Positions 1,716-24,255 are shown, numbered from the stretch's first letter. The stretch is 64,000 nucleotides of DNA from Minisyncoccota bacterium (GCA_041665925.1 JBAYHW010000002.1:26838-90837); one strand, 5' to 3'. Notes: generated by a model from the sequence alone, not told the origin. Translations and numbers: made by a program.

Positions 1716-1806
1716 AGAGCCATTCTAGCACAAGAGAACTATTGTCAAAGTGTTCAAGTGCGTAAAACTGTTATTAAAATGTGGAGAATTATGATAATAT
1801 ATTTGT

Positions 1807-2763
1807 ATGTCAAAAAAAGTAATTTTGTCAGGGATTCAGCCTTCTGGTAGGCCCCATATTGGGAACTATTTCGGAATGATGAAGCAACTCCTAGCCGAGC
1901 AGGAAGATTATGAAGTTTATGTGCTCATAGTGGACTATCATGCAATGAAGTCGGTACGTAGCGCAAAGGAGATGAAAGAAAACATTACTAATGTTGTGCT
2001 AGATTATTTAGCTCTTGGGCTTAATCCAGAGAAGGTTACATTTTTTAAGCAGAGTGATGTATCTGAACATACAGAGCTTTGTTGGATTTTCGATACCATT
2101 ACGACAATGCCATATCTGATGCGAGCGCACGCGTTTAAAGATGCCGAAGCCAAGAATAAAGAAATTGATGTCGGGACATTTAATTATCCGATGCTTATGG
2201 CTGCTGACATTTTATTATATAGTCCAGACATTATTCCAGTCGGCGCTGATCAAAAACAACACATTGAGATAGCTCGAGATACAGCAGAGAAATTTAATCG
2301 CACATTCGGAGAGACATTTAAACTGCCGGAAGCTATGATTATGAAAGATGTTGCCGTGGTGCCGGGCACAGATGGACGCAAGATGAGCAAGAGTTACAAC
2401 AACACCATCCCACTTTTTGCCGAGTATGAAGAAATTAAAAAGTGCGTGATGAGTATTGTCACGGACTCTGATGGAAGTTTTCCAAAAAACGTTTTTGCTA
2501 TACATATGCTTCTTCCTTTTTATTCAAATAATGAGTTGAGTAAAATTTATGAAGAACACCCTCGAGAGTATAAATTTTTAAAAGAGTTACTCATAGAAGA
2601 TTTAGAGAAATTTATTGCTCCGCTTCGTGAAAATAGAAAAGAATTTGAAAAAGATATCCCCAAAGCGCTTGCCATACTTAAAGCAGGAGGAGAAAAGGCT
2701 AAAAAGGTAGCAGAAGCGAAAATGGACGAAATTCGAGAGAAAATCGGGGTAAAGGTTTACTAA
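1807..2763 (+). CDS. trpS: Tryptophanyl-tRNA synthetase
   Basis: 318 aa. N-terminal SGIQPSGRPHIGNY is the class I HIGH-type motif. KMSKS motif is present (GRKMSKSYNN). Confidence 0.92.
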   Translation: MSKKVILSGIQPSGRPHIGNYFGMMKQLLAEQEDYEVYVLIVDYHAMKSVRSAKEMKENITNVVLDYLALGLNPEKVTFFKQSDVSEHTELCWIFDTITTMPYLMRAHAFKDAEAKNKEIDVGTFNYPMLMAADILLYSPDIIPVGADQKQHIEIARDTAEKFNRTFGETFKLPEAMIMKDVAVVPGTDGRKMSKSYNNTIPLFAEYEEIKKCVMSIVTDSDGSFPKNVFAIHMLLPFYSNNELSKIYEEHPREYKFLKELLIEDLEKFIAPLRENRKEFEKDIPKALAILKAGGEKAKKVAEAKMDEIREKIGVKVY

Positions 2764-2770
2764 GGTTTCT

Positions 2771-3067
2771 ATGGAAAAGAAAAATCCTAAAATACTAGAA
2801 TACAAAAAAGAACTTCTGGAAGTTTTTTCAAGTATTAAGGGCGATAAAAAGCTAATGGCAGAATTTTTAATAGATATTTTGACACCCGCAGAGTTCGATG
2901 ACCTGGCCCTCAGGTGGCAGTTAGTAAAAAGATTGTATAAAGGAGATACCCATAGAGCTGTAGCAGGGGAGTTGGGTTTGGGTTTAGGGAAAGTCATGAG
3001 AGGATCTAGAGAACTTCGTAATAAAAAAGGGGGGTTTAATCTAATTCTTAAAAAACTAAGTAAGTAA
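2771..3067 (+). CDS. YerC/YecD-family (TrpR-like) helix-turn-helix protein
   Basis: 98 aa. DILTPAEFDDLALRWQLVKRL...GDTHRAVAGELGLGLGKVMRGSRELRN...GGFNLILKKL matches the conserved TrpR/YerC-YecD pattern (LLTP.E...L..R, TG.S..TI.R, GG[YF].L.L). It starts 8 nt after trpS and is probably co-transcribed. Confidence 0.7.
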   Translation: MEKKNPKILEYKKELLEVFSSIKGDKKLMAEFLIDILTPAEFDDLALRWQLVKRLYKGDTHRAVAGELGLGLGKVMRGSRELRNKKGGFNLILKKLSK

Positions 3068-3099
3068 ACACGGTACAGAGATTTAAAAGTTATCCCCAG

Positions 3100-3144
3100 A
3101 TGCAATTTGCATTATTTTTTTGTCCTGCTACTATGTACTAGTAC
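3100..3144. promoter_or_regulatory. Operator-like palindromes: ATGCAA-T-TTGCAT (3100-3112) and GTACTAGTAC (3135-3144), with flanking GGTACAGA direct repeats
   Basis: Perfect 6+1+6 and 10-bp palindromes read directly from the sequence. GTACTAGTAC contains the ACTAGT half-site of the classical E. coli TrpR operator (GTACTAGTTAACTAGTAC). They lie immediately downstream of the trpS / TrpR-like pair. Confidence 0.35.
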
Positions 3145-3309
3145 ATGGGTACAGACTAAAAAGATAGATTAGGTACACATGTGACGACAATTATGAAAGA
3201 CAATAATAAAACAAATAAATTAACTAAATCATGGTGGGGTGGAGAGCTTATAGCTTTTGCGCTGTTCCGTTGATTTCTTTTCTCCTAATTTTCAAACAAG
3301 AAATTTACC

Positions 3310-3338
3310 AAATGGCGCACAAGCGCCATTTGTTCTTT
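3310..3338 (+). terminator. Putative intrinsic terminator: 9-bp perfect stem AAATGGCGC/GCGCCATTT, loop ACAA, then TTGTTCTTT
   Basis: Inverted repeat and downstream T-rich tract seen in sequence. It lies ~240 nt downstream of the TrpR-like gene stop. Confidence 0.35.
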
Positions 3339-3374
3339 ATGCCACCTCTAATAATAACTGAAAGGACCAGTGCC

Positions 3375-3548
3375 ATGGATGACAAAAGATCGGAAAATGT
3401 ATACACAGAACAGATGAAAGATGCACAAGAACTCATTTCCAAAGCCAGTGAAGCTCTGGGTGAGTTCAAATTTCGTACCGCATCCACTCTACTCAAACAA
3501 GCGACCGAACAGGTCGATGCACTGTGGGTAGACAAAACTTACTGGTAG
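3375..3548 (+). CDS. Hypothetical small protein (57 aa)
   Basis: Internal ATG of the 3231-3548 ORF, with AAAGGA upstream. The upstream part of the longer ORF looks non-protein-like. No recognisable family. Confidence 0.3.
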   Translation: MDDKRSENVYTEQMKDAQELISKASEALGEFKFRTASTLLKQATEQVDALWVDKTYW

Positions 3549-3579
3549 TTATTTTAGAAATAGAAGGGAGGTGATCCAG

Positions 3580-3609
3580 ATGTCTCTTTGGGATGACTGG
3601 TGGCAGTAG
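3580..3609 (+). CDS. Mini-ORF MSLWDDWWQ (9 codons, 3 Trp): candidate leader peptide
   Basis: Strong SD GGGAGGTGA 5 nt upstream of the ATG. Three Trp codons in nine. Followed 40 nt downstream by an intrinsic terminator. Confidence 0.3.
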   Translation: MSLWDDWWQ

Positions 3610-3647
3610 GAGCCTGATGGTAGCGGAAGTGGCTCCACCGCATCGCT

Positions 3648-3681
3648 GGTCCCGACGTAAAAATCGGGGCCATTTTTATTT
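3648..3681 (+). terminator. Intrinsic terminator: stem GGTCCCGA/TCGGGGCC (8 bp, one G-U), loop CGTAAAAA, then ATTTTTATTT
   Basis: Hairpin plus U-tract seen in sequence, directly after the Trp-rich mini-ORF. Confidence 0.5.
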
Positions 3682-3734
3682 CAGAGTAGTAGTATGATAG
3701 TATTGGGGCATTAATCAAGTTTTCCACAGGTCTA

Positions 3735-3762
3735 TTGCATTTGGTTTTTGGTATGTTATAAT
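3735..3762 (+). promoter_or_regulatory. Sigma-70-like promoter: TTGCAT (-35), 16 nt spacer, TATAAT (-10)
   Basis: Near-consensus hexamers with near-optimal spacing, upstream of the small Cys/His ORF and the GC-rich island. Confidence 0.45.
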
Positions 3763-3994
3763 ACACATGTAATGAAAATTTCACAGCGTAACAACTTTTT
3801 CTTTTTTAACTTTAGCCCTAACCTTAGAGGTCAGATATTTGCGCTGTAAAAAAGAACTTAAACAAAAACTTACAACTCAAACACCTGCCCTCTAAGGGGT
3901 GGGTGTTTTCGTTTCTGCGTGTGGCAGGAGCGAAAGGGTAAAGGGGCTACCTATCATAAAGTCCTTAATGAGTTGTTCTTTGGGAGAAATAGCC

Positions 3995-4168
3995 ATGTTT
4001 GATATCTCCACCCAAGTTGAGTGCCGCGAATGCGGCGCGAAGTTCGATCCGTTTTTCGGGCATAACTGCCCGAAGCAGAACAGCGTTGCCGTGGCGCCGA
4101 CAGCGTCGCGACGGGAACGAATCAGCTCGGATTTCCCCGACACAGGGACGTCCAACTGGTCGAAGTAA
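3995..4168 (+). CDS. Small Cys/His-containing protein (57 aa), possible zinc-ribbon
   Basis: SD GGGAGA 7 nt upstream of the ATG. MFDISTQVECRECGAKFDPFFGHNCPKQ... has CxxC...H..C. GC-rich. Flanked by its own promoter and terminator. Confidence 0.4.
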   Translation: MFDISTQVECRECGAKFDPFFGHNCPKQNSVAVAPTASRRERISSDFPDTGTSNWSK

Positions 4169-4194
4169 TTATTCGACCAGATCACAAGGAAGGA

Positions 4195-4236
4195 GGGGGC
4201 GAAGTCTTAACCGACAAGCCCCCACCCCTTTTTCTT
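4195..4236 (+). terminator. Intrinsic terminator: stem GGGGGC/GCCCCC, then ACCCC and a T-run
   Basis: Hairpin and T-tract seen in sequence, directly downstream of the small ORF's stop codon. Confidence 0.45.
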
Positions 4237-4353
4237 AAAAAATATATGAAAAATAAAATTTTAAAATATAATAATTTTTTCTTCAGCGTCAGGATTTACC
4301 CCGAGAGCTGATTTTTGCGTTTAAAAATATCCTAACAAAATATTTTAAAAACA

Positions 4354-4380
4354 AACACCAGCTCTCGTAGAGCTGGTGTT
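4354..4380. promoter_or_regulatory. Perfect 11-12 bp hairpin AACACCAGCTCT / AGAGCTGGTGTT
   Basis: Perfect inverted repeat with a 3-5 nt loop and no following U-tract, ~90 nt upstream of the fusion gene start. It could be a regulatory or processing stem-loop. Confidence 0.3.
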
Positions 4381-4467
4381 CCCGTTTAGCGGGGACATTG
4401 ATCTTTGACAAGTGAATAGTTGTTCTTTTTACGTTGGGGTCAAATCCAAAGAAAGGAGGTGAAGAAA

Positions 4468-6039
4468 ATGAATCCTACAGAAGTTAAAATTGTCATGGAG
4501 ACAATCAAAAAGTCTCTAGGCAACGGCGAGGATGGCTATAACCTGGCGGCACTTCTAAGAAGTGCAATCCAGAAGAAGGTCGCAGAGCTTGAAAAAGAAC
4601 GAAAAGAGAGGGGGGAAGAGGAAATTCAAAGGAAACTCGCTCTCCCTATTCAGCGGGCGGACAAACTTCTTTCTTCTGTTCCACGCCTAGTACTGGAAGA
4701 GATAGACAGTTACACCCGAAGTCATAAATGGGGCGAGCTGTCAGTCTCAGCCCAGCAGAAGTTGCATGAACTGGGCGTTCTCGATCTGTGGGCGAAACGC
4801 CGGACTTACGGACCGGATGGTGGAGAGAAACCTTCAGTCAGCTGGTTTGAACCATTCGGGAAAGCTCTGAAAAATCTCATCTGTAACAAGGTAGATGAGT
4901 TGCGTCGAAGTGACGCAGAGGCCACAGAGGCAGCTCGACAAGCTAGGTTGCAGCCAGCCCAAGAGCTTTTGAATGAGCTTTTAGCAAAGTCCGTCAGGCT
5001 TTCGCTCGAAGATGCAAAAGCTTGTAAGGAGGCGCTGGAGAAGTGGATCGAGGACAATGCCTACCGGCCGTACAGTGGTGGCGGCGGGGGTGGGAGTGGT
5101 TGTGTGGTTTCTGATTCGCAAGAGCCGTTCTTGCGAGGGCGATGGGGCCCGCCTATGAAGTGGCCCCCAACAAATTTTTCGGAGAGACAAATGAATCCGA
5201 TCAAAATCGCAGTGGTGGGATTCGGGGATTTCGGTTCCCGATTCGTTAGGTGGCTCCGGAAAGCGAGAGTCGGTGTCGAAACCATCGCGGTGGTAGACCC
5301 GATTCCTGGGAAAATCTGGGGCCCCGCGGGCGTTCTCGTGAGCCCCAGCATCCACGCAATCTCGCAGCGGGTCCTTTCACAGGTGCAGGTCTTCGTCGAT
5401 TGCACTTCCAAAGGGCAAGGCAAGGAGAATCTTGGTCTGTACCAAGCGCTCGGCAGACCGGCCGTGTTTCAAAACGGCGAAGACCGAGCGCTGTGTCAGT
5501 TGTTCCGCGCGGGCTCGACATTTCTTGCGGGAGCGCCGTACCTCCGCATCCCGCAGTGCTCGGCGCTGGCGACAATGAGTGTGTTTGAAGCGCTTCATCC
5601 GCTTCTCGACATTCGTTCCGTCTACACGCTCCATGCCAAGATCAACAACAAAGACAAAATGCTCGGCCTGGGCGACAAGTCTGCGGCCGACATCACCACG
5701 CTCGCAGAGATTCCGGCGGTCGTTGACGTGTGGTACTTGCGAGAGAAGCCGAAGCAGGGCCGCACGCAGTACGTCTACCACGGCAATCTGCACTTTCAGT
5801 GTGGGGGTGCAATTCCGTCGGCGGATCGCATTCGGAAAGCGCTCATGGCGTCCCGTGTGCCACTGTGTACGCAGGAGCTCGACTCGCTGATTTCACCACG
5901 TCTCACGCAGACGCACGTGGTCGCGGAGAGCATTTCGGTTCAGGGAAACAGCGTTCGCATGAACGTGATTTCCTGGACACCGGAAGTGAACTTTCCACAA
6001 AACCTGGCCGCAATCAAATTGCTGGCCAAAGTTCTTTAA
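4468..6039 (+). CDS. Fusion protein: unknown coiled-coil N-domain + poly-Gly linker + archaeal type-II GAPDH-like NAD(P)-binding dehydrogenase domain
   Basis: Strong SD AAAGGAGGTG 8 nt upstream of ATG 4468 (the track ORF starts at 4420). C-terminal half has IAVVGFGDFGSR (Rossmann), VFVDCTSKGQGKENLGLYQALGRPAVFQNGED (archaeal GAPDH signature DCTP.G.G..N...Y...G..A.FQGGE) and a conserved Cys in RIPQCSAL at the position of catalytic SCNTT. N-terminal ~230 aa has no recognisable family. Linker is SGGGGGGSG. GC is ~58% against a ~35% background. Confidence 0.6.
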   Translation: MNPTEVKIVMETIKKSLGNGEDGYNLAALLRSAIQKKVAELEKERKERGEEEIQRKLALPIQRADKLLSSVPRLVLEEIDSYTRSHKWGELSVSAQQKLHELGVLDLWAKRRTYGPDGGEKPSVSWFEPFGKALKNLICNKVDELRRSDAEATEAARQARLQPAQELLNELLAKSVRLSLEDAKACKEALEKWIEDNAYRPYSGGGGGGSGCVVSDSQEPFLRGRWGPPMKWPPTNFSERQMNPIKIAVVGFGDFGSRFVRWLRKARVGVETIAVVDPIPGKIWGPAGVLVSPSIHAISQRVLSQVQVFVDCTSKGQGKENLGLYQALGRPAVFQNGEDRALCQLFRAGSTFLAGAPYLRIPQCSALATMSVFEALHPLLDIRSVYTLHAKINNKDKMLGLGDKSAADITTLAEIPAVVDVWYLREKPKQGRTQYVYHGNLHFQCGGAIPSADRIRKALMASRVPLCTQELDSLISPRLTQTHVVAESISVQGNSVRMNVISWTPEVNFPQNLAAIKLLAKVL

Positions 6040-6160
6040 CGCAAAGCTTGCCGGCGGAATTGGCAGGTAATTACAAAGAAAGGGGCAGTCTCAAATCAAA
6101 TCATCGAGACGTAAGACCCCTTTTTCTTTTTCATTATTTTTATGCTAAAATGCCATCACA

Positions 6161-7177
6161 ATGCCGAACGCAAGTCATATTAATTTAAACCCTTACCCAC
6201 TAATGCTTTATGGCAGTCCGAGTGGAGTCAAGCATAGTCTAGTCGTTAAGGTTGCGAAGTTGTTGAAAAAACCTCTTTCCCCCTCTACTTATAAAGAATT
6301 TAAAGACGGTTCATTTTTGGTTCATCACAATGATTCAGTTCGAGATCGTGACGTTTATTTAATTCTACAACCTCGCTTTGGTAACAGAGAAATTCTTTCC
6401 TATGATTTAGACGAATGCGAATCTATGGTTTTGGCGCTAAAGCAAGGAGAGCCAAGTCGTATTACAGTCGTTATCCCATGTCTGCCATATTCAAGGCAAG
6501 ACAGAGGGTCTAATCACCGAGAGCCTGTACTAGTGCAAAAAGTTCCTATGCGTCTTCAGATGGCTGGGGCACACCGTCTCGTAACACTCCGACTACACAA
6601 TCCAGCGAGCTATAATGCCCATCCTTCTACGATACCTATTGTCGATGTGAATGTAGACGACCTTCTGGTAAAACATATTCGTTCAAAAAAGTTTGATCTA
6701 AAAAAATTTAAAATAGTCGCCCCAGACTTAGGCGCTGCTCCTTCGTGCAGAAAGCTTGCTCGCGAGCTCGGTATCCCAGAAAATATAATTATCATAAATA
6801 AGGTGCGTGATCCGAAAAAAGCAAACCACAATGAAGTCATGGAAGTGATAGGAGATGCAAAAGGTTTTAACTGCATTATTCCTGACGACATGGCCGATAC
6901 GTGCGGTACGGCTATAAAATCACTTTATGCGCTAAAAGAAAATGGAGCCAAGGATGTATATTTTACAGCGACGCACGCTGTTCTGTCTGGGACAGCTGTA
7001 CAGGATTTAAATAAGGCTCCGTTTGCCGGTATTTGGTTTACAGATTCTTGCATAGAAGGGGAAAAAGGGAAAATAAAAAATCTTGAAATAATCTCTACTG
7101 CGAAACTAATCGCAAAGATCATTGATAATTTACATAATGGCAAGTCAGTCACCGAACTTTGGCATAATGGAAAATAA
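6161..7177 (+). CDS. prs: Ribose-phosphate pyrophosphokinase (PRPP synthetase)
   Basis: 338 aa. LPYSRQDR (ribose-5-P binding loop) and IPDDMADTCGT (PRPP-binding motif DDM.DTGGT) are present. Overall collinear with Prs. Confidence 0.8.
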   Translation: MPNASHINLNPYPLMLYGSPSGVKHSLVVKVAKLLKKPLSPSTYKEFKDGSFLVHHNDSVRDRDVYLILQPRFGNREILSYDLDECESMVLALKQGEPSRITVVIPCLPYSRQDRGSNHREPVLVQKVPMRLQMAGAHRLVTLRLHNPASYNAHPSTIPIVDVNVDDLLVKHIRSKKFDLKKFKIVAPDLGAAPSCRKLARELGIPENIIIINKVRDPKKANHNEVMEVIGDAKGFNCIIPDDMADTCGTAIKSLYALKENGAKDVYFTATHAVLSGTAVQDLNKAPFAGIWFTDSCIEGEKGKIKNLEIISTAKLIAKIIDNLHNGKSVTELWHNGK

Positions 7178-7272
7178 AATTTTTGTGTTAAAATATATTT
7201 TATACCTGTCCCGTTAGAAAATCAACGGACTTGTATAAAAAAGGAAGTTTATTATTTTAATTTTTTAATGGG

Positions 7273-8622
7273 ATGAAAAATCGTATTTATATTAAAGATT
7301 TGAAAGAAAACGTGGGGCAAGAAGTTCTTATTGCCGGCTGGGTGGATGTACGTCGTGATCAAGGCAAGATGGTATTTTTTGATATGCGGGATATGACAGG
7401 CAAGGTACAATGCGTGGTTTTGCCGAATCATATGGAGGCGATAGAGCAAGCAAAAGAGGTTAGACTAGAATGGGTTCTTAAAATGACTGGAATAGTAAAC
7501 AAACGTCCAGACAAAAATGTTAAGGCGGGAGTTTTGAATGGCGATATAGAAATCGAAGTTTTAGATATTGAAGTATTGTCTGAAGCGGCGCCTTTGCCTT
7601 TTGACATGTCGCTTGATGGATACAATTTAGATTTGACCACCGAGCTTGATAATCGAGCGTTGGTTCTCCGTCAACCGAAAGTGCAAGCGGTTTTTAAAGT
7701 GCAAGAGACCGTAATCGACTCCTTCCGTGAATTTATGAAAAAAAATATGTTTTTTGAATTTCAAGCGCCGAGTATCGCCCCGGCTGTCGCCGAAGGTGGG
7801 AGTGAAGTTTTTAAAGTTGATTATTTTGACAAGAAAGCATATTTAACTCAATCACCCCAGCTTTATAAGCAAATTGTAATGTCTGCTTTTGAGCGAGTTT
7901 TTTCAGTCAACAAAGTTTTCCGAGCCGAGCCTTCTTCTACGACTAGACATTTGACTGAAATTGTTTCCCTTGATGCCGAAATGGGTTTTATTGATTCTTG
8001 GGCAGATGTTCGTGATATGGCAGAAGAAACAGTAAGATACATACTAAAACAAGTTGAACAAAAAAATTCTGAACATTTGAAAATTTTAAATGCTGAGCTT
8101 CCAAAAATGATAGAAAAAACTCCCACCATGTCTCTGCGAGAAGTTCAGCAGAAAATTTTTGAAAAATCTGGACGAGATGTACGCGGAGAAAAAGATACCA
8201 ATCCTCAAGATGAACGTGAAATTTGCGAAATAATAAAAGAAGAAACCGGCTCTGATTTTGTATTTATATATGGATATCCGACCAGGAAAAAGCCTTTTTA
8301 TGTTTATCCAAATCCAGAGGAGCCTGAATACAATGAAGGTATGGATTTAATCTGTAGAGGCGTAGAATGGCTTTCAGGTGGAAGAAGAATTAATGATTAC
8401 AATCAACTTATGAAGCATGTGGAAATCTGGAAAATGGATCCAAGTAAAGTAAAAATGTTTTTGGAAGCTTTCAAATATGGAGTACCACCTGAAGGTGGAT
8501 TTGCTTTTGGCGCTGAACGTATCACCATGCAGCTTTTGGGTCTAAAAAATGTCCGTGAAGCCTCAATGTTTCCCCGAGACATGAACAGGATAGACGATAA
8601 ACTTAACAGCGACGGATATTAA
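7273..8622 (+). CDS. aspS: Aspartyl-tRNA synthetase, archaeal/eukaryotic-type class IIb (possibly non-discriminating). AsnRS not fully excluded.
   Basis: 449 aa. N-terminal OB-fold anticodon-binding domain. QSPQLYKQ, FRAEPSSTTRHLTEIVSLD and GAERITMQLLG are class II motifs 1-3 of the Asp/Asn/Lys subclass. Confidence 0.7.
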   Translation: MKNRIYIKDLKENVGQEVLIAGWVDVRRDQGKMVFFDMRDMTGKVQCVVLPNHMEAIEQAKEVRLEWVLKMTGIVNKRPDKNVKAGVLNGDIEIEVLDIEVLSEAAPLPFDMSLDGYNLDLTTELDNRALVLRQPKVQAVFKVQETVIDSFREFMKKNMFFEFQAPSIAPAVAEGGSEVFKVDYFDKKAYLTQSPQLYKQIVMSAFERVFSVNKVFRAEPSSTTRHLTEIVSLDAEMGFIDSWADVRDMAEETVRYILKQVEQKNSEHLKILNAELPKMIEKTPTMSLREVQQKIFEKSGRDVRGEKDTNPQDEREICEIIKEETGSDFVFIYGYPTRKKPFYVYPNPEEPEYNEGMDLICRGVEWLSGGRRINDYNQLMKHVEIWKMDPSKVKMFLEAFKYGVPPEGGFAFGAERITMQLLGLKNVREASMFPRDMNRIDDKLNSDGY

Positions 8623-10316: not shown

Positions 10317-10880
10317 TCAGTGAATGCCACCAGAACTTCCGCAGTAGTGCGAGTCCGATTTAAGCCGGAGTACAATGAACCCACGACGGCGAAGTTGTAA
10401 GAGAGGGTGACGGTTTCCGTTTTTGAATGCGGAAATCGACTTCTCGCGATCTCTGAGGTCTGCTCTGTACTTCTGCATGTCCGTTTTGTATTTCAGAGAG
10501 TACAGCTTGTTGATCTCGTCGATCACCTTCGAGAGTGATCTTTCCAAACCAAGAGATTTAATCTCAGAGATCCTGATTTTAATCTGGCTTCCCTCGAAAC
10601 AAACCTCATCTCTGTAAAGATACGAAGTCTTGGGATTAAATGCCCTCTCGAGCCCTTGACGAATCCATTCAACAGTGAGCTTGCTAGTACCCCGAGGACG
10701 CTTGGGACGGATAGGTTTCCGGAATAGGTCGTCGATGAGATTCTCTTCGCGCTTGTAGACCGCACATGGAATGTTCACTGATGCGAGCGTCTCATCGATT
10801 GTTCCAGTCGCATCCTTGAGTTCTTTCCAATTTCGTACGATCTTGCCGCGCTTGACCGAATATTTTTCGATACTAAGCAT
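10317..10880 (-). CDS. Hypothetical protein (187 aa), unknown family, elevated GC
   Basis: Strong SD AAAGGAGGTGA 8 nt upstream of the minus-strand ATG. GC ~47% against a ~35% background. No recognisable motifs. Lies downstream of a TrpR-like gene of similar GC. Confidence 0.55.
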   Translation of the reverse strand: MLSIEKYSVKRGKIVRNWKELKDATGTIDETLASVNIPCAVYKREENLIDDLFRKPIRPKRPRGTSKLTVEWIRQGLERAFNPKTSYLYRDEVCFEGSQIKIRISEIKSLGLERSLSKVIDEINKLYSLKYKTDMQKYRADLRDREKSISAFKNGNRHPLLQLRRRGFIVLRLKSDSHYCGSSGGIH

Positions 10881-10939
10881 CCCTTTTCACCTCCTTTCTA
10901 TTTGATTTTAAAGAACGATAGGTTTTTCCTACTAACGCA

Positions 10940-10968
10940 AAACCCCCTCCACAATGGAGGGGGTTAGG
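10940..10968. terminator. Bidirectional intrinsic terminator CCCCCTCC-ACAATG-GGAGGGGG flanked by A/T runs
   Basis: Perfect 8-bp GC stem with A-run upstream and T-run downstream (AAAACCCCCTCC...GGAGGGGGTTAGG). Sits between the two minus-strand genes. Confidence 0.5.
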
Positions 10969-10984
10969 TTCGAAATAAAAATAA

Positions 10985-11377
10985 TTACGAGCTCAAACGC
11001 AACCCTTTCCGTTGTGGAGAAGAGTTGCTGCGATGTAAACGAGAAAGAATCAAGCGGTAGCCACCGAGGGAGCCGTAAAGCCATTTGGCGATGCGGGCGA
11101 TGGTGGTGGAAGAAAGCCCCGTCGATTCGCTGATAGCTTCGTATTGGACGTCGCGAGAGAGAAGCCGTGCGGCTTCGAGGCGCTTGCTGAATTCGGTAAT
11201 TTCCGCGGGGGTCAGGAGGTCGCGGAGAAACCGCTTAGCTTCATCGGTCGTTTTCAGCTCTAAAATACCAGCCACCAGCTGCCTGGTTTCCTTGGTATTC
11301 CAATCCGCATCCGAGCCGATCTCGGTCACCAGCCGGACTGTTTTTACCTTCGTATTTTTATTCATTCCCGTACTCAT
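10985..11377 (-). CDS. YerC/YecD-family (TrpR-like) DNA-binding protein, second paralog
   Basis: 130 aa. LRDLLTPAEITEFSKRLEAARLLSRDVQYEAISESTGLSSTTIARIAKWLYGSLGGYRLILSRL matches the YerC/TrpR family pattern very closely. GC ~52%. Confidence 0.75.
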   Translation of the reverse strand: MSTGMNKNTKVKTVRLVTEIGSDADWNTKETRQLVAGILELKTTDEAKRFLRDLLTPAEITEFSKRLEAARLLSRDVQYEAISESTGLSSTTIARIAKWLYGSLGGYRLILSRLHRSNSSPQRKGLRLSS

Positions 11378-12014: not shown

Positions 12015-14591
12015 TCAATTAGGGGTATTTAAGAACTTTTCGATAATTTTTCGATCGCGTTTGAGCCAAACGATATTACCTTCGAGGCGTTCAAGGACCT
12101 GGGTGATGGCCCTGGAGGCCCCAGGGGCTTCGTGAATGCTGAAGAACTTACGGAAGCTATTTAGATGCTTCTGCTCGGCGCTACCGCTTATGGCCTTTAC
12201 AACCCTTGCTAGATTAAGTCCACCTTCACCGTAGCGAGATACGAGGGTTTTCCAATTCTTTTGAATAAAATTCCACCAAATGTCTCGGCCCAGGGGATTG
12301 GCTCCGATAGAAGAGAGGATGCCCATTGTGTCTTGCGGGCGGACATGTTTAGACATTGCGAATTCACAAGTTCTTTTTAATAATGTAGGACTTTTAAAAT
12401 CACCCAAAATTCCACCAATTCTATTTTTCTCTTCGTGCAGAGTTTCTTTTTTATATAAATTTATAAATTGATTGAATTCTTTTGTTCCACTGTGAGTCGC
12501 AACTATGCCGTATACTGCTCCACGAATGTCTGGAGAAATATTTTTTGTATTAAATTTCTTACGAGCTTCGGCAATTATTTTCTTATCACCGGCGTGTCCA
12601 GCACGAGAAATTGCAAGCGAGCGGAGCAATACATCCATATGGGCTTCTTTTGGTTTCTTTTGCCAGCTAAGTTTTAAAGCAAGAGGGGAGAAGAGGCCTA
12701 GAATTAATTTATTTAAATTATCTTCTGCTCCAGTTTTCACCAACAACTGCTCTAGTCGTGCTAGACCTGTGGCTATTTCTACCCAGACTGTGTAATTGTT
12801 TTCGTTTTTGTATGCTGATAAAAATTCTAAGGCATCGGTGGTGGGTATTGTTCCAGCTTCTGCCAGGGCAAATAAGTCACGAATGATTCCCAGCCTGTCG
12901 CTTGCGTTTAATTCTTTATTTTTAACTGGGGCGCGTAACTTTTCCAATAATTCCTTAGAGTAAGCGGTTCTATAAAATCCTGTTTCGCCGAAATTCAGTT
13001 TTATGTAAATATGAAAACCAAACTTTTTATCGGTACGGAATTTTTTAAGCTTAAAAATTCCTGAAGTCGGCTCGCCGTCGCTCGCCAAACCCCTAAAAAA
13101 GTTTGTTTTCATGTTCTGTATGGGAATATCCCAAACCGTTTTATTTTTGGCTTTTTTAGCAGATATTGGACTTGCAAAAAATCTTTCTTGCGACAATAGA
13201 AGTTCATTATTTTTTAGACTTGCTTTGACGACAGGGTAGCCGGGTTTGGATGTCCAATCGTGCATCATCTTAGCTACTGGTTTGCCTGAGACTTTTTCAA
13301 ATGCTTGCCATAGATGCAGAGTCGCCGTGTTTTTATAACTGTGCTTTTTTAAATAGAATCGCAGGCCGTCTCGGAAATCTTGCTCTCCTAAATAATTTGC
13401 GAGCATACGAATTATCGAGGCACCCTTGGAATACGATACCTCATCAAAAATTTCTCCAATTTCGTCTGGGTGGTGGACTTCTACTTCTATGGGGTGCGTA
13501 GTTTTAAGTGCATCAAGTCTAAGGGCAACACCAAGGTCGTTTGTGATGAACTGCGTCCAGATGTCCCACTTAGGGAAAAGTTTATCAACGGCAAGGTATT
13601 CAATGTATGAAGCGAAGCCTTCATTCAGCCATAAATGCGTCCACCATTCCATGGTTACTAAGTTGCCGAACCATTGATGGGCTAGCTCGTGGGCAACGAC
13701 AAGAGCCACCCATTGCTTATTTGATGCCGAAGAGTGGGCTTCGTCTACTAAAAGGGCGCTCTCGCGATAGGTGACTGCTCCCCAGTTCTCCATTGCCCCA
13801 GAAGAGAAGTCTGGAATCGCGATCATATCAAGAGCTGGTAAAGGATATTTAATATCAAAATACTTTTCATAAAATTCTAAAGTTTTCACAGCGCAATCAA
13901 GTGCGAACCTTGCTTGATGTTTTTTCCCTGGCACAGTAAATACTCTCACAAGGGTGCCATTTCTTGTCTTTGACTTTATATGTTCAAAATCTCCTACAAT
14001 GAAGGCTAGAAGGTAAGTGGACATCTTGGGCGTAGGGGAAAATTTAATGACATTATATCCTGATTCGTGTTCAAGCGTAGAGACCGGTAGGGTGTTTGAG
14101 ATTGCGGTTTTGCCCTTCGGCACAATAAGAGAAACGTGGAAGATAGCTTTATGTGTTGGCTCGTCAAAACAAGGAAAAGCTCGCCTAGCGTCTGTGGCTT
14201 CGAACTGGGTGGTTGCCATATGAAATTCTTTTTTATCAACGTTGTATTTACTTCTGTAAAAACCACGCATTTTGTCGTTCAAAATACCCTGGAACACGAG
14301 AGTAAGTTTTGTCTTGCCCTTAGGAATAATTTTTGGGAACGTAAATGTTGCTGTTTCGGACTTTTTGTCATATTTAATTTTTCCAAATAGTTTTTCTTTT
14401 CCAATTTCTATATCTACAGTTTCGATGTCTATTTCTTTACTATGCAACATTACTGTTATAGTTTTTTGCAAAATACTAAGATGTATAGTTTCTCGGCCAG
14501 AGAAAGTAAAGTTCTCTAGATCAGGTTTGAGCTCAATCTTATACTCGGTCGGTATGATATTTTTAGAAAGACGGACATTTTTCTTTTGCAT
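12015..14591 (-). CDS. pepN: Aminopeptidase N (M1 family zinc metallopeptidase)
   Basis: 858 aa. GAMEN exopeptidase motif (SSGAMENWG) and HEXXH-x18-E zinc motif (HELAHQWFGN...WLNEGFA). Confidence 0.9.
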   Translation of the reverse strand: MQKKNVRLSKNIIPTEYKIELKPDLENFTFSGRETIHLSILQKTITVMLHSKEIDIETVDIEIGKEKLFGKIKYDKKSETATFTFPKIIPKGKTKLTLVFQGILNDKMRGFYRSKYNVDKKEFHMATTQFEATDARRAFPCFDEPTHKAIFHVSLIVPKGKTAISNTLPVSTLEHESGYNVIKFSPTPKMSTYLLAFIVGDFEHIKSKTRNGTLVRVFTVPGKKHQARFALDCAVKTLEFYEKYFDIKYPLPALDMIAIPDFSSGAMENWGAVTYRESALLVDEAHSSASNKQWVALVVAHELAHQWFGNLVTMEWWTHLWLNEGFASYIEYLAVDKLFPKWDIWTQFITNDLGVALRLDALKTTHPIEVEVHHPDEIGEIFDEVSYSKGASIIRMLANYLGEQDFRDGLRFYLKKHSYKNTATLHLWQAFEKVSGKPVAKMMHDWTSKPGYPVVKASLKNNELLLSQERFFASPISAKKAKNKTVWDIPIQNMKTNFFRGLASDGEPTSGIFKLKKFRTDKKFGFHIYIKLNFGETGFYRTAYSKELLEKLRAPVKNKELNASDRLGIIRDLFALAEAGTIPTTDALEFLSAYKNENNYTVWVEIATGLARLEQLLVKTGAEDNLNKLILGLFSPLALKLSWQKKPKEAHMDVLLRSLAISRAGHAGDKKIIAEARKKFNTKNISPDIRGAVYGIVATHSGTKEFNQFINLYKKETLHEEKNRIGGILGDFKSPTLLKRTCEFAMSKHVRPQDTMGILSSIGANPLGRDIWWNFIQKNWKTLVSRYGEGGLNLARVVKAISGSAEQKHLNSFRKFFSIHEAPGASRAITQVLERLEGNIVWLKRDRKIIEKFLNTPN

Positions 14592-14613
14592 AAAGAAATG
14601 TTAGCATATAAGG

Positions 14614-15369
14614 GTGAATGAGCAAACTTATCAAATAAAAACCGCTGGTTTTGAGGGCCCTTTTGGCTTACTTTTGGACTTAATAGAAAAGCGCAAGCTT
14701 CATATAAATGATGTATCTTTAGCGGAAGTTACCGAGGAATACCTAGAGCATATGAATAAGATGGGCGGGTTAAGCCCCGCAGAAATTTCTAGCTTTGTGC
14801 TCGTGGCTTCGACTTTACTTTTAATCAAATCAAAATCACTCTTGCCGAATCTTGACCTTACCTCCGAAGAAGAAGGAGATATCAAGAGCCTGGAAGAAAG
14901 GCTTCGTCTGTATGAACTATTTACAAGATTGGGGGGAAATATAAAAAGTAATTTCGGAAAGAAAATAATCTTTGCTCCACTAGAAAGAAAAAATGATTTC
15001 TTGGTTTTTCTTCCTGACGACAGTATAACACCAGAATCCATGATGACTTTCGCTAGGAACGCCCTAGGAGCTATGCCGAAAAAAGTTTTCTTGCCAGAAG
15101 TGGAAGTGCGCAAGGTGATAAGTATAGAAGAAATGATAGATAATTTAACCAAAAGAATTACAAAATCACTGAAAATGAATTTCAAGGATTTACATGGCCA
15201 CAATGGTGGGGTTCATTCAAAAGAAGAAAAAATAGTTGTAATTGTTGGATTTCTTGCTATGCTTGAACTTGTAAGACAGGGGATAATGGATGCTACACAA
15301 AATGAGATTTTTGAGGATATTTTTATAGAGAAGACTGAAGTAATTATTGAAAATACAGATGAACAATAG
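14614..15369 (+). CDS. scpA: Segregation and condensation protein A (kleisin)
   Basis: 251 aa. N-terminal FEGPFGLLLDLIEKRKLHINDVSLAEVTEEYL is the conserved ScpA N-terminus. Confidence 0.85.
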   Translation: MNEQTYQIKTAGFEGPFGLLLDLIEKRKLHINDVSLAEVTEEYLEHMNKMGGLSPAEISSFVLVASTLLLIKSKSLLPNLDLTSEEEGDIKSLEERLRLYELFTRLGGNIKSNFGKKIIFAPLERKNDFLVFLPDDSITPESMMTFARNALGAMPKKVFLPEVEVRKVISIEEMIDNLTKRITKSLKMNFKDLHGHNGGVHSKEEKIVVIVGFLAMLELVRQGIMDATQNEIFEDIFIEKTEVIIENTDEQ

Positions 15370-23705: not shown

Positions 23706-24182
23706 ATGTTTCAGAAGTTCGTGTCTCTGGGGGAGTTCAGCAAACTCTCACATAAAGACAAAACGGTTGTGATGACCACTGGGGTGTTTGACGTGCCACA
23801 CGTAGGGCATCCACGCTACTTATACACGGCAAGGATGCTGGGCGACCTGCTCGTGGTCGGAGTGCATTCCGACGAGCTGGTTCGCCAGAGGAAGGGTGAA
23901 GGACGACCGATTTACCCACTGGAAGAGCGGGTGGAGTTGTTGTCTTATTACGGTTGCGTGGACTTCATCCTGGAACTCAAAGACCAGGAAGATGTCTATG
24001 GGACGATCCGGACCGTAAGGCCAAAAATCCTAGTGGTGTCGACGACCACTGAGGACGAGGCCAACAGCCCGGCCACCATGAGCTCAATGTTCGGCGACAG
24101 CATGGCGGTTGCCGTACTCGGGCCACAGTCATTCCGACACACGACAGATCTCGTCGAAAAACAGGAGGTGATCGAAAAATGA
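23706..24182 (+). CDS. Cytidylyl/adenylyltransferase-like protein (RfaE domain II / TagD-like nucleotidyltransferase), GC-rich
   Basis: 158 aa. TTGVFDVPHVGHPRYLYTARMLGDLLVVGVHSDELVRQRKGEGRPIYPLEERVELL matches the HIGH-type nucleotidyltransferase core of heptose-1-P adenylyltransferase / glycerol-3-P cytidylyltransferase. SD GGAGGAG upstream. GC ~54% against ~35% in the flanks. Confidence 0.65.
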   Translation: MFQKFVSLGEFSKLSHKDKTVVMTTGVFDVPHVGHPRYLYTARMLGDLLVVGVHSDELVRQRKGEGRPIYPLEERVELLSYYGCVDFILELKDQEDVYGTIRTVRPKILVVSTTTEDEANSPATMSSMFGDSMAVAVLGPQSFRHTTDLVEKQEVIEK

Positions 24183-24255
24183 GCCTATCGAGGGAAGACT
24201 ATGCTTTCTTTGGTAGGCTTTTCTCATTTTCATATAAAAATGCTAAAATGGACAT

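Follow-up and report, generated by a model that had tools for sequence, protein, structure and literature searches.

A GAPDH-derived dehydrogenase joined to an orphan helical protein as the likely cargo of a leader-controlled cassette in a Minisyncoccota bacterium

A stretch of 64,000 nucleotides from a Minisyncoccota bacterium (GCA_041665925.1 JBAYHW010000002.1:26838-90837), referred to below as the window, was analyzed around the open reading frame (ORF) at 4468-6039 on the plus strand, which encodes a product of 523 amino acids (aa). The C-terminal part of this product is a dehydrogenase domain with the fold of the archaeal type II glyceraldehyde-3-phosphate dehydrogenase (GAPDH), and the N-terminal part is an orphan region predicted to be all-helical. 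Taken as a whole, the ORF and its setting are best explained, in a reading that we consider likely though far from certain, as a recent fusion private to this lineage, in which a GAPDH-derived enzyme is the cargo of a cassette controlled by a leader. The upstream partner would have been the gene of an orphan helical protein of ~200 aa, and the downstream partner a member of a dehydrogenase family that is rare and whose proteins are short (~285 aa). The region, which a preliminary description had presented as an island, consists of two or three cassettes, which occupy a hypervariable slot flanked by trpS and prs; the fusion gene is the cargo of the last one. The gene content of the window is otherwise the ordinary housekeeping content of a small bacterium, including dnaB, trpS, a TrpR-like gene, prs, and aspS. 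The coordinates of all features are collected in Table 1.

The C-terminal domain comprised 282 aa. The motifs from which the preliminary description had recognized an archaeal GAPDH-like enzyme (IAVVGFGDFGSR, VFVDCTSKGQGKENLGLYQALGRPAVFQNGED, and RIPQCSAL) were all present in the translation, together with the glycine-rich SGGGGGGSG at aa 203-211. Searches with the single sequence matched NF003251 (E 8.6e-10) and PDB entry 1cf2 (5.7e-6) over residues ~277-387 only, with the NCBIfam match limited to residues ~300-387, and far under the curated cut-offs. The full-length query retrieved itself alone in a word-indexed homologue search because low-complexity words swamped the candidates. Residues 236-523 were used as the query instead, and three stand-alone homologues of 282-292 aa were found. 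An exhaustive search of 1.84 billion protein representatives yielded 19 family proteins, none of which covered residues 1-241. A profile built from 16 family members aligned end to end with archaeal type II GAPDHs in the PDB (1b7g, 6e-23; 2czc, 5e-22; 1cf2, 1e-21; 2yyy, 7e-19), spanning positions 6-281 of 286, and the NCBIfam type II GAPDH models matched 16 of the 16 aligned members, with a best E of 5e-16 and never near the cut-off. The AlphaFold2 (AF2) model built on the family alignment had a predicted local distance difference test score (pLDDT) of ~90 for residues 242-523. A Foldseek search of the PDB with this model, one of the checks that had been proposed, placed 2czc, 2yyy, 1cf2, and 1b7g at the top (E 2e-19 to 3e-17, target-normalized template modelling score 0.66-0.69), followed by the type I GAPDHs and erythrose-4-phosphate dehydrogenase; the similarity to the GAPDH family was thus significant (E 2e-19). 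The profile and the structural comparison agreed, so the earlier assignment of the fold was right, and the nucleophilic Cys was in place. Weak Pfam matches to DapB_N, GFO_IDH_MocA, and NAD_binding_3 were seen in some members. The domain had the combination that defines the superfamily of GAPDH-like and aspartate-semialdehyde-dehydrogenase-like enzymes, a Rossmann GxGxxG motif followed by a Cys-bearing catalytic domain, and G251, G253, G256, and C364 were invariant. Literature searching for papers on archaeal-type GAPDHs of the candidate phyla radiation (CPR) and on the structures gave nothing usable.

Compared with the archaeal type II GAPDHs (NF003251/TIGR01546; 1b7g, 1cf2, 2czc, and 2yyy), the family aligned throughout, with a Rossmann domain and an alpha/beta catalytic domain, the motifs GxGxxG, VDC(T/S)xxGxGxxNxxxY, and (A/V)(I/V)FQ(G/N)GE, a nucleophilic Cys at the same position in an x-C-(N/S) turn, and a C-terminal PE(N/I)xxA(I) helix. 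Unlike those enzymes, the family was ~50 residues shorter (276-312 aa vs ~335-343 aa), was only ~20% identical to them, was bacterial (Patescibacteria), and in the window carried a 241-aa orphan extension. Weak profile matches to acylating acetaldehyde dehydrogenases of the DmpF/BphJ type (1nvm_B and 4lrs_B, E 1e-4 to 3e-3) and a fold match to the erythrose-4-phosphate dehydrogenase of E. coli (2xf8) were also found. These enzymes and aspartate-semialdehyde dehydrogenase have the Rossmann domain and the Cys-nucleophile catalytic domain in common with the family, but they were far more distant than type II GAPDH. The DmpF-type enzymes adjoin partner genes such as aldolase, whereas the gene of the C-terminal domain had no such partners nearby. 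All three groups illustrate that the scaffold supports substrates beyond glyceraldehyde-3-phosphate, as well as CoA-dependent chemistry.

An analysis of the invariant columns revealed that the active site differed from that of GAPDH. The residues G251, G253, G256, D311, C312, G318, N321, Y325, A332, Q335, G337, E338, C364, K391, Y423, Y437, and P505 were invariant in the family. In the hidden Markov model (HMM) alignment, Cys364 was equivalent to the nucleophile C139 of 1b7g and was the same in 18 of the 18 family sequences. The position of H219 of 1b7g (MHMH/MHVH strand), which we take to be the catalytic base, was occupied by the invariant Y437, and the alignment with 2czc agreed; the adjacent His438 was variable, and several members had A, I, S, or F instead. 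Of the presumed phosphate sites of 1b7g, R166-R167 (RRAAD motif) corresponded to K391-(V/I), where a single basic residue was kept, and S-H192-H193 (PSHH) corresponded to S-x-x-(D/E), where the His pair was lost. An Asp or Glu ended strand β2 in 16 of the 16 members (D277 here). In Rossmann folds an acidic residue after β2 favors NAD over NADP, and therefore the use of NAD(H) is predicted for the family, whereas the archaeal type II GAPDHs prefer NADP. The scores against NF003251 and TIGR01546 were 38.2-41.1 and 27.7-29.6 bits, below the cut-offs of 185 and 232.9. With such scores, and with the catalytic His and the phosphate-site residues not kept, a bona fide GAPDH function was not borne out. 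As judged from its sequences, the family derives from the fold of the archaeal type II GAPDHs, and its active site has been remodelled. Its most likely reaction would be the NAD-dependent oxidation or reduction of an aldehyde or acyl thioester through a thiohemiacetal on Cys364, and the substrate would be one other than glyceraldehyde-3-phosphate, either free of phosphate or with the phosphate held differently.

The closest homologue of the C-terminal domain, P0002 (72% aa identity), was encoded on contig L002 from another sample and was a stand-alone protein. Its start region, AAGGAGTAAAGGATG, had a Shine-Dalgarno sequence (SD) of its own, and a TAA lay in frame two codons ahead of the ATG. 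In the equivalent region of the window, TCGGAGAGACAAATG, the SD GGAG (6-nt spacer) and the ATG at 5191 were intact and the stop was gone; the linker of the fusion protein aligned with this SD/TAA region of L002. The other full-length family representatives had no N-terminal extension and were ~276-312 aa long, with one of 396 aa. With an extension in 0 of the 19 family representatives, the architecture was indeed as novel as had been proposed, and the strong SD ascribed to the ORF at 4468-6039 was found as aaaggaggtg, 6 nt before its ATG. In the two alternative frames, stops come 12-27 codons past the G-run, before the internal SD and ATG are reached. These stops, together with the stop lost relative to L002, suggest that the two neighbors were joined through loss of a stop or through a frame shift of 1 nt within the G-run, and because the internal SD and ATG were retained, the loss of the stop or frame is likely to have been recent. 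The intact SD and ATG at 5191 also suggest dual translation, in which a free enzyme of 282 aa would probably be made beside the 523-aa fusion. The fusion thus appears to be recent and private to the lineage; seen as an architecture, it probably arose not long ago and may be neutral. The identical 523-aa product was found in an NCBI metagenome-assembled genome (MAG; MFA6520250.1, Candidatus Paceibacterota bacterium, 119 kb), in JGI/IMG, and in a Logan contig. This contig (5.5 kb) was 100% identical to 1774-7302 of the window over 5529 nt, and an ENA record of 124 kb also had the same sequence. The possibility of an assembly join, raised in the preliminary description, was checked in this way: the same DNA was present in ENA, NCBI, JGI, and Logan, and the 3′ junction recurred in another sample, which speaks against an artefact of assembly.

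The N-terminal region was a real open frame. Chance does not account for its 241 open codons: a stop-free frame arose in none of 20,000 mononucleotide shuffles and, with a first-order Markov model, in a fraction of 5e-5 of the simulated sequences. The remaining five frames contained 7-13 stops each. When the 241 aa were searched by themselves, as had been suggested, no homologue was found among the 1.84 billion representatives, in phages and plasmids (tblastn), or in viral contigs. The earlier statement that this half belongs to no recognized family held for both sequence and fold. The AF2 model with an alignment showed 8-10 separate low-confidence helices of 9-35 residues each (pLDDT 40-70) in the region that had first been labeled a coiled coil. 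The single-sequence AF2 model was poor (pLDDT 48), and its Foldseek matches were meaningless, with nothing at E < 1. The 184-aa ORF upstream of the family member in L012 and the 247-aa cargo of L018 were considered as relatives of the N-terminal domain, and no homology was found. The 40-residue linker (SGGGGGGSGCVVSDSQEPFLRGRWGPPMKWPPTNFSERQ) was predicted to be disordered, with a pLDDT of ~30-43.

Two leader modules of ~110 nt, A and B, were found in the slot, each with a promoter-like box before it and an SD ~70-90 nt after it. Each module contained a long imperfect hairpin, H1, whose 3′ half also serves as the 5′ arm of a terminator hairpin, H2. With the covariance model (CM), A and B were the only full copies in the 64-kb window besides a degenerate one at 3246-3355. 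Both modules had orthologues in L018, and BLASTN aligned 3718-3953 of the window with L018 7010-7261 at 74% identity and 3824-3895 with L018 7775-7840 at 79% identity. The model found further copies after rplU in L018 (1176-1287 and 1767-1877), which preceded an ORF of only 83 aa and a longer, GC-rich one of 274 aa; the latter has what by eye resembles a methyltransferase motif, and Pfam gave no match for it. A weaker L018 copy at 14586-14690(-) lay upstream of an aromatic-amino-acid hydroxylase gene, and a weak match to the model (E 0.05) was seen in the window at 10919-11025(-). In the six copies, compensatory changes occurred in 9 of the 21 pairs of H1, and 92% of the cells were paired; 0-1 of 500 shuffles reached the observed values, and slid controls gave at most 4. 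H1 and H2 were mutually exclusive and near in energy, the minimum-energy fold picking either one depending on the copy, and a U-tract followed H2 in 4 of the 6 copies. With a terminator hairpin in each module, the U-tract, and the covariation of H1, the modules have the make-up expected of an intrinsic-terminator attenuator at the level of sequence. The competition between H1 and H2 suggests that the expression of the cassette genes is probably set by transcription attenuation.

The modules resembled known attenuators, for instance the protein- or ligand-controlled 5′ leaders of Firmicutes, in the order of promoter-like box, long hairpin overlapping a terminator, SD, and gene, in the covariation that preserves both folds, and in the near equal energy of the two folds. 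Unlike those leaders, they had no match in Rfam, and one and the same leader stood before unrelated, exchangeable GC-rich cargo at at least two loci. No Rfam family was found for the leaders or for the block at 3905-4235, and at E <= 5 the region 3000-4500 yielded miRNA and sRNA noise alone. Where the dehydrogenase family occurs in other lineages, the sequence upstream of the gene had generic hairpins only and gave no match to the covariance model. The most economical reading is that of an attenuation leader reused before exchangeable cargo, and the leader may be a new cis-regulatory RNA of Paceibacteria.

The variability of the slot was shown by the relatives L018-L023 (including NCBI GCA_036517215.1), in which prs was at least 90% identical. 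They had the dnaB(-)-trpS ... prs-aspS frame in common, but the cargo between trpS and prs consisted of unrelated GC-rich orphans of ~90, 247, and 62 aa with a GC content of 0.50-0.57, and the slot contained neither the TrpR-like gene nor the dehydrogenase. In the BLASTN comparison of the window with L018, only the AT-rich stretches before the cargo were conserved. The TrpR-like gene (2771-3067) and the first cassette, with its 57-aa ORF, were present in the window lineage and absent from the L018 type, in which leader A came straight after trpS (2764-3717 of the window against L018 7011-7124). The exact protein of cassette 1 was on record for this population alone (Logan and NCBI MFA6520249.1). 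Between the cargo of cassettes 1 and 2, a tiny ORF, MSLWDDWWQ, had three Trp among its nine codons and lay just downstream of trpS and the TrpR-like gene, with the look of a Trp leader peptide. A Trp attenuator was dropped as an explanation of this ORF, as the fold was no better than that of shuffles (z = -1.0) and no antiterminator pairing could be established. The possible ORF of cassette 2 had a GC content at second codon positions (GC2) of 0.72, which is atypical for coding sequence, and it had no family matches and no product in the protein collection. The RNA fold of 3905-4235 had z = -6.0 and formed a chain of perfect hairpins, and the equivalent cargo of L018 had z = -0.15; the cassette 2 block may be a structured RNA instead of a protein gene. 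RNA structure was rejected as the cause of the GC-richness of the cargo, since the values were inconsistent (z = -6.0, -3.2, -3.4, and -0.15). Variable gene slots between conserved flanks are known from the minimal mobile elements of Neisseria and from integron arrays and clusters of attC sites lacking integron integrases (CALINs). The trpS ... prs slot is similar in its fixed position, in its atypical and mostly orphan genes that differ in relatives, and in the repeats between them. Unlike those systems, no integrase or attC consensus was seen here and the repeats resemble RNA leaders, and any exchange of cargo is putative.

The base composition of the slot was atypical. The mean GC of the window was 0.379 (sd 0.049, 500-nt windows), and values above 0.50 were found only at 4501-6000 and at 23751-24250. 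The latter corresponds to an ordinary cytidylyltransferase-like gene at 23706-24182 (Pfam PF01467, E 6e-14). The fusion ORF had a GC of 0.548 and a GC at third codon positions (GC3) of 0.61 overall and 0.69 in the C-terminal domain, compared with 0.32-0.36 for trpS, prs, and aspS, and GC at first (GC1) and second positions was raised too. The rise in GC at 3.55-6.1 kb described earlier was therefore real, but it was not a single block from 3.55 kb: two GC-rich blocks, at ~3900-4200 (0.54) and 4500-6040 (0.50-0.61), were separated by an AT-rich spacer at 4200-4500 (0.35), and 3550-3900 reached only 0.40-0.46. The reported antisense ORFs were present, over 5000-5800, as would be expected from the scarcity of stop codons in GC-rich DNA. 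An rRNA, RNase P, or tmRNA was considered for the GC-rich block and rejected; the Rfam scan at gathering scores and the tRNA scan of the window gave tRNA-Gln (56.9 kb) alone. Pfam, PADLOC, and PHROGs searches with the fusion protein and the small ORFs gave nothing significant, leaving a defence or phage reading unsupported, and the search for att sites or direct repeats at the borders of the island gave short chance-level repeats at most.

The dehydrogenase family has so far turned up in Patescibacteria genomes and unassigned metagenome contigs. Of 185,579 species genomes, two contained a locus, one being a MAG of Doudnabacteria and the other a MAG of Patescibacteria; two loci were found in the JGI metagenomes and none in viral contigs. 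The family gene was monocistronic amid unrelated housekeeping genes, with a GC of 0.39-0.61 in hosts of 0.35-0.57; it exceeded the GC of its host in the window (0.58 vs 0.38), L002 (0.51 vs 0.35), and L009 (0.47 vs 0.39), and not elsewhere. A distant member of the family, 38% identical, adjoined rplU-recR-dnaB in L009 (8001-10834). This block is also found near the locus of the window, and the second cassette site of L018 lies after rplU, which may reflect chance or an old positional association. In L002, P0002 stood directly before aspS, flavokinase, EamA, pterin-4a dehydratase, peptidase M1, and scpAB, the order of the window minus prs. Between the window and L002, the aa identity and the identity at 4-fold sites were 0.72 and 0.36 for the dehydrogenase domain, 0.81 and 0.42 for EamA, 0.75 and 0.30 for peptidase M1, and 0.72 and 0.34 for ScpA. 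Since the dehydrogenase has diverged as its neighbors have, the gene has been in place since the lineages of the window and L002 split. A very recent import of the dehydrogenase gene is excluded, and an older transfer from a GC-rich donor, since partly drifted in composition, is possible. The phrase "compositionally foreign island next to prs" in the preliminary description was thus right about the atypical composition and too simple about the island, whose dehydrogenase gene was syntenic in L002 and whose leaders were AT-rich and conserved.

Several other explanations were weighed. The whole of 3.9-6.04 kb could be a recent horizontal transfer from a GC-rich donor that has not yet drifted in composition and brought the fusion protein along. 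The GC3 of 0.69 in the C-terminal domain against 0.33 in host genes, the raised GC1 and GC2, and the like composition of the family genes in the GC-rich hosts of L013 and L014 (gene GC 0.58-0.61, host GC 0.56-0.57) are in line with such a transfer, as are the varying content of the slot among close relatives and the other GC-richer indels nearby (10317-11377). However, the gene was syntenic in L002 at a divergence of housekeeping level, so any transfer predates the split of the lineages; the internal spacers and leaders were AT-rich, host-like, and conserved with L018; the closest relatives outside the syntenic position were only 37-49% identical, and none stood out as a donor; and the phage, plasmid, and viral collections gave nothing. 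An old, partly drifted transfer would also fit the explanation by a fusion in a leader-controlled cassette. We regard the recent transfer as the less probable account, although one to be taken seriously. An integron-like cassette array without an integrase, in which the hairpins are attC-like DNA sites and the GC-rich ORFs mobile cassettes, is improbable in our judgment. It would explain why co-oriented, mostly orphan ORFs of foreign composition lie between imperfect inverted repeats of 66-76 nt with conserved unpaired positions, why the repeats stay and the cargo changes between close relatives, and why L018 has a second two-cassette array after rplU. But RYYYAAC/GTTRRRY boxes were not seen at the hairpin ends (by eye, with no dedicated attC model), conservation peaked in the inner hairpin and not at the base, the opposite of attC, and no integrase Pfam was found among the called genes around the locus (L001 and L018). 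The position of the hairpin between the promoter-like box and the SD, overlapping a terminator with a U-tract, fits an RNA leader, and the modules occupied orthologous positions in diverged genomes.

The dehydrogenase itself might instead be a bona fide glycolytic GAPDH of the archaeal type fused to a scaffold or localization domain, as the preliminary description implied. Its best matches by sequence and fold are indeed type II GAPDHs, and it retains the nucleophilic Cys, the Rossmann motif, and FQ(N/G)GE. This is nevertheless very unlikely, as the scores of 38-41 bits were far from the cut-offs of 185 and 233, the protein was ~50 residues short, the equivalents of H219, R167, and H192/H193 were not conserved, and an acidic residue followed β2; furthermore, the extreme rarity of the family is at odds with a core glycolytic step, and the neighboring genes were never glycolytic. 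The fusion might also be an artefact that merges two separate genes, caused either by a chimeric join or by an erroneous 1-nt indel within the G-rich run at 5084-5100. A single indel would restore a classical two-gene layout, given that the alternative frames end 12-27 codons after the G-run, and the closest homologue is a stand-alone protein. Yet identical DNA and product came from different assemblers (ENA, NCBI, JGI, and Logan), a run of G5-6 is seldom miscalled in consensus Illumina assemblies, and the 3′ junction with host DNA recurred in a different sample; we give this explanation hardly any weight.

Some points also weigh against the explanation that we prefer, a recent fusion with the enzyme as cargo of a leader-controlled cassette. 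The L002 contig ends 13 nt before the ATG, which leaves room for a neighbor resembling the N-terminal domain there. The assemblies may all stem from one sample, and a frameshift variant at the level of the population is possible. The equivalences of active-site residues came from HMM alignments at ~20% identity and may slip by one residue, the His438 next to Tyr437 might still serve as the base in most members, and the substrate proposed for the C-terminal domain is a guess. The covariation was derived from six copies in two lineages, with the alignment fitted to the model. The absence of the leader before the family genes of other lineages means that it is not tied to the dehydrogenase family, and the lasting GC-richness of the cargo falls outside the proposed account.

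A broader proposal, which we offer as a speculation with a rather low chance of being right, is that in Paceibacteria of this lineage a hitherto undescribed leader RNA switching between antiterminator and terminator folds controls exchangeable orphan cassettes of lasting GC-richness at fixed sites, namely between trpS and prs, after rplU, and possibly at the aromatic-amino-acid hydroxylase gene, and that these are swapped by recombination at the leaders, as an analogue of an integron without an integrase in the ultra-small genome of a symbiont. One of these cassettes would carry a new GAPDH-derived family without phosphate sites in the course of fusing to an orphan helical protein.

Table 1. 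Features of the trpS-prs slot and of the fusion ORF (positions in the window)
Feature	Position	Strand	Description and basis
Degenerate leader copy (unit 1)	3246..3355	+	Ends in terminator-like hairpin 3309-3332; CM 12.6 bits, E 0.6; TTTGCGCTGT core by eye
Cassette 1 cargo	3375..3548	+	57-aa helical orphan ORF (105-aa or 69-aa by gene callers); no Pfam, NCBIfam, PADLOC, or PHROG family
Tiny ORF MSLWDDWWQ	3580..3609	+	Strong SD GGGAGGTGA; terminator-like hairpin 3647-3672; sequence read
Promoter-like box before leader A	3735..3762	+	TTGCAT-16 nt-TATAAT; by eye, unflagged by consensus scan
Leader module A	3815..3930	+	H1 3822-3897, H2 3879-3908 with U-tract, then H3; CM 114 bits; L018 orthologue 7124-7236
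Cassette 2 cargo	3954..4235	+	GC-rich block (0.54-0.58); possible 57-aa CxxC...HxC ORF 3996-4168; terminator hairpin 4196-4230
Leader module B (paralogue of A)	4292..4402	+	H1 4302-4367, H2 4354-4380, H3 4381-4396; CM 105 bits; L018 orthologue 7767-7874
SD of fusion ORF	4452..4461	+	AAAGGAGGTG; read in sequence; spacer to ATG 6 nt
N-terminal orphan region (aa 1-200)	4468..5067	+	Predicted all-helical; AF2, open frame
Linker (aa 201-241)	5068..5190	+	G-run SGGGGGGSG; internal SD GGAG at 5181-5184; pLDDT 29-43
C-terminal type-II-GAPDH-like dehydrogenase domain (aa 242-523)	5191..6039	+	Own ATG; profile, Foldseek, AF2
Residues of the C-terminal domain			GxGxxG 251-256, D277, DC 311-312, FQNGE 334-338, Cys364, Lys391, Tyr437
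Hairpin and T-run after ORF, then promoter-like box of prs	6081..6131	+	TATGCTAAAAT; by eye; 3′ flank kept in L002

Several observations were made in the surroundings of the slot. The aspS gene (7273-8622) was apparently chimeric: its first ~110 aa were 79% and 64% identical to those of L002 and L018, whereas the remaining ~310 aa were only 33% (L002) and 30% (L018) identical, though over this part L002 and L018 had 62% identity with one another. In the window lineage, the catalytic part of aspS seems to have been replaced. A second GC-richer insertion relative to L018 (0.45-0.54) was found at 10317-11377 (-). It contains an orphan ORF of 187 aa and another gene of the TrpR family, encoding 129 aa (Pfam E 4e-16). 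In L018, 13845-16087 contained a Biopterin_H hydroxylase, a nitroreductase, and a kynurenine-formamidase-like cyclase beside the pterin-4a dehydratase, and these genes were absent from the window. Aromatic amino acids are a theme of the neighborhood, with trpS, two TrpR-like genes, and the putative Trp-rich leader peptide.

Should the fusion prove accidental and neutral, and the enzyme no more than a usual aldehyde dehydrogenase, the interest of the locus would be modest. Even so, the fusion is a rare snapshot of the joining of two genes by loss of a stop or frame, with the internal start still intact, and the dehydrogenase family shows clearly how an archaeal GAPDH scaffold was re-tooled in bacteria, where the Cys was kept and the His and phosphate sites were replaced. 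The genomes of CPR bacteria are tiny, yet this lineage maintains a slot for atypical, fast-changing genes. The candidate leader would tie otherwise unrelated orphan genes into one regulon and is directly testable, and identification of the substrate of the dehydrogenase would add one reaction to the sparse metabolism of Patescibacteria.

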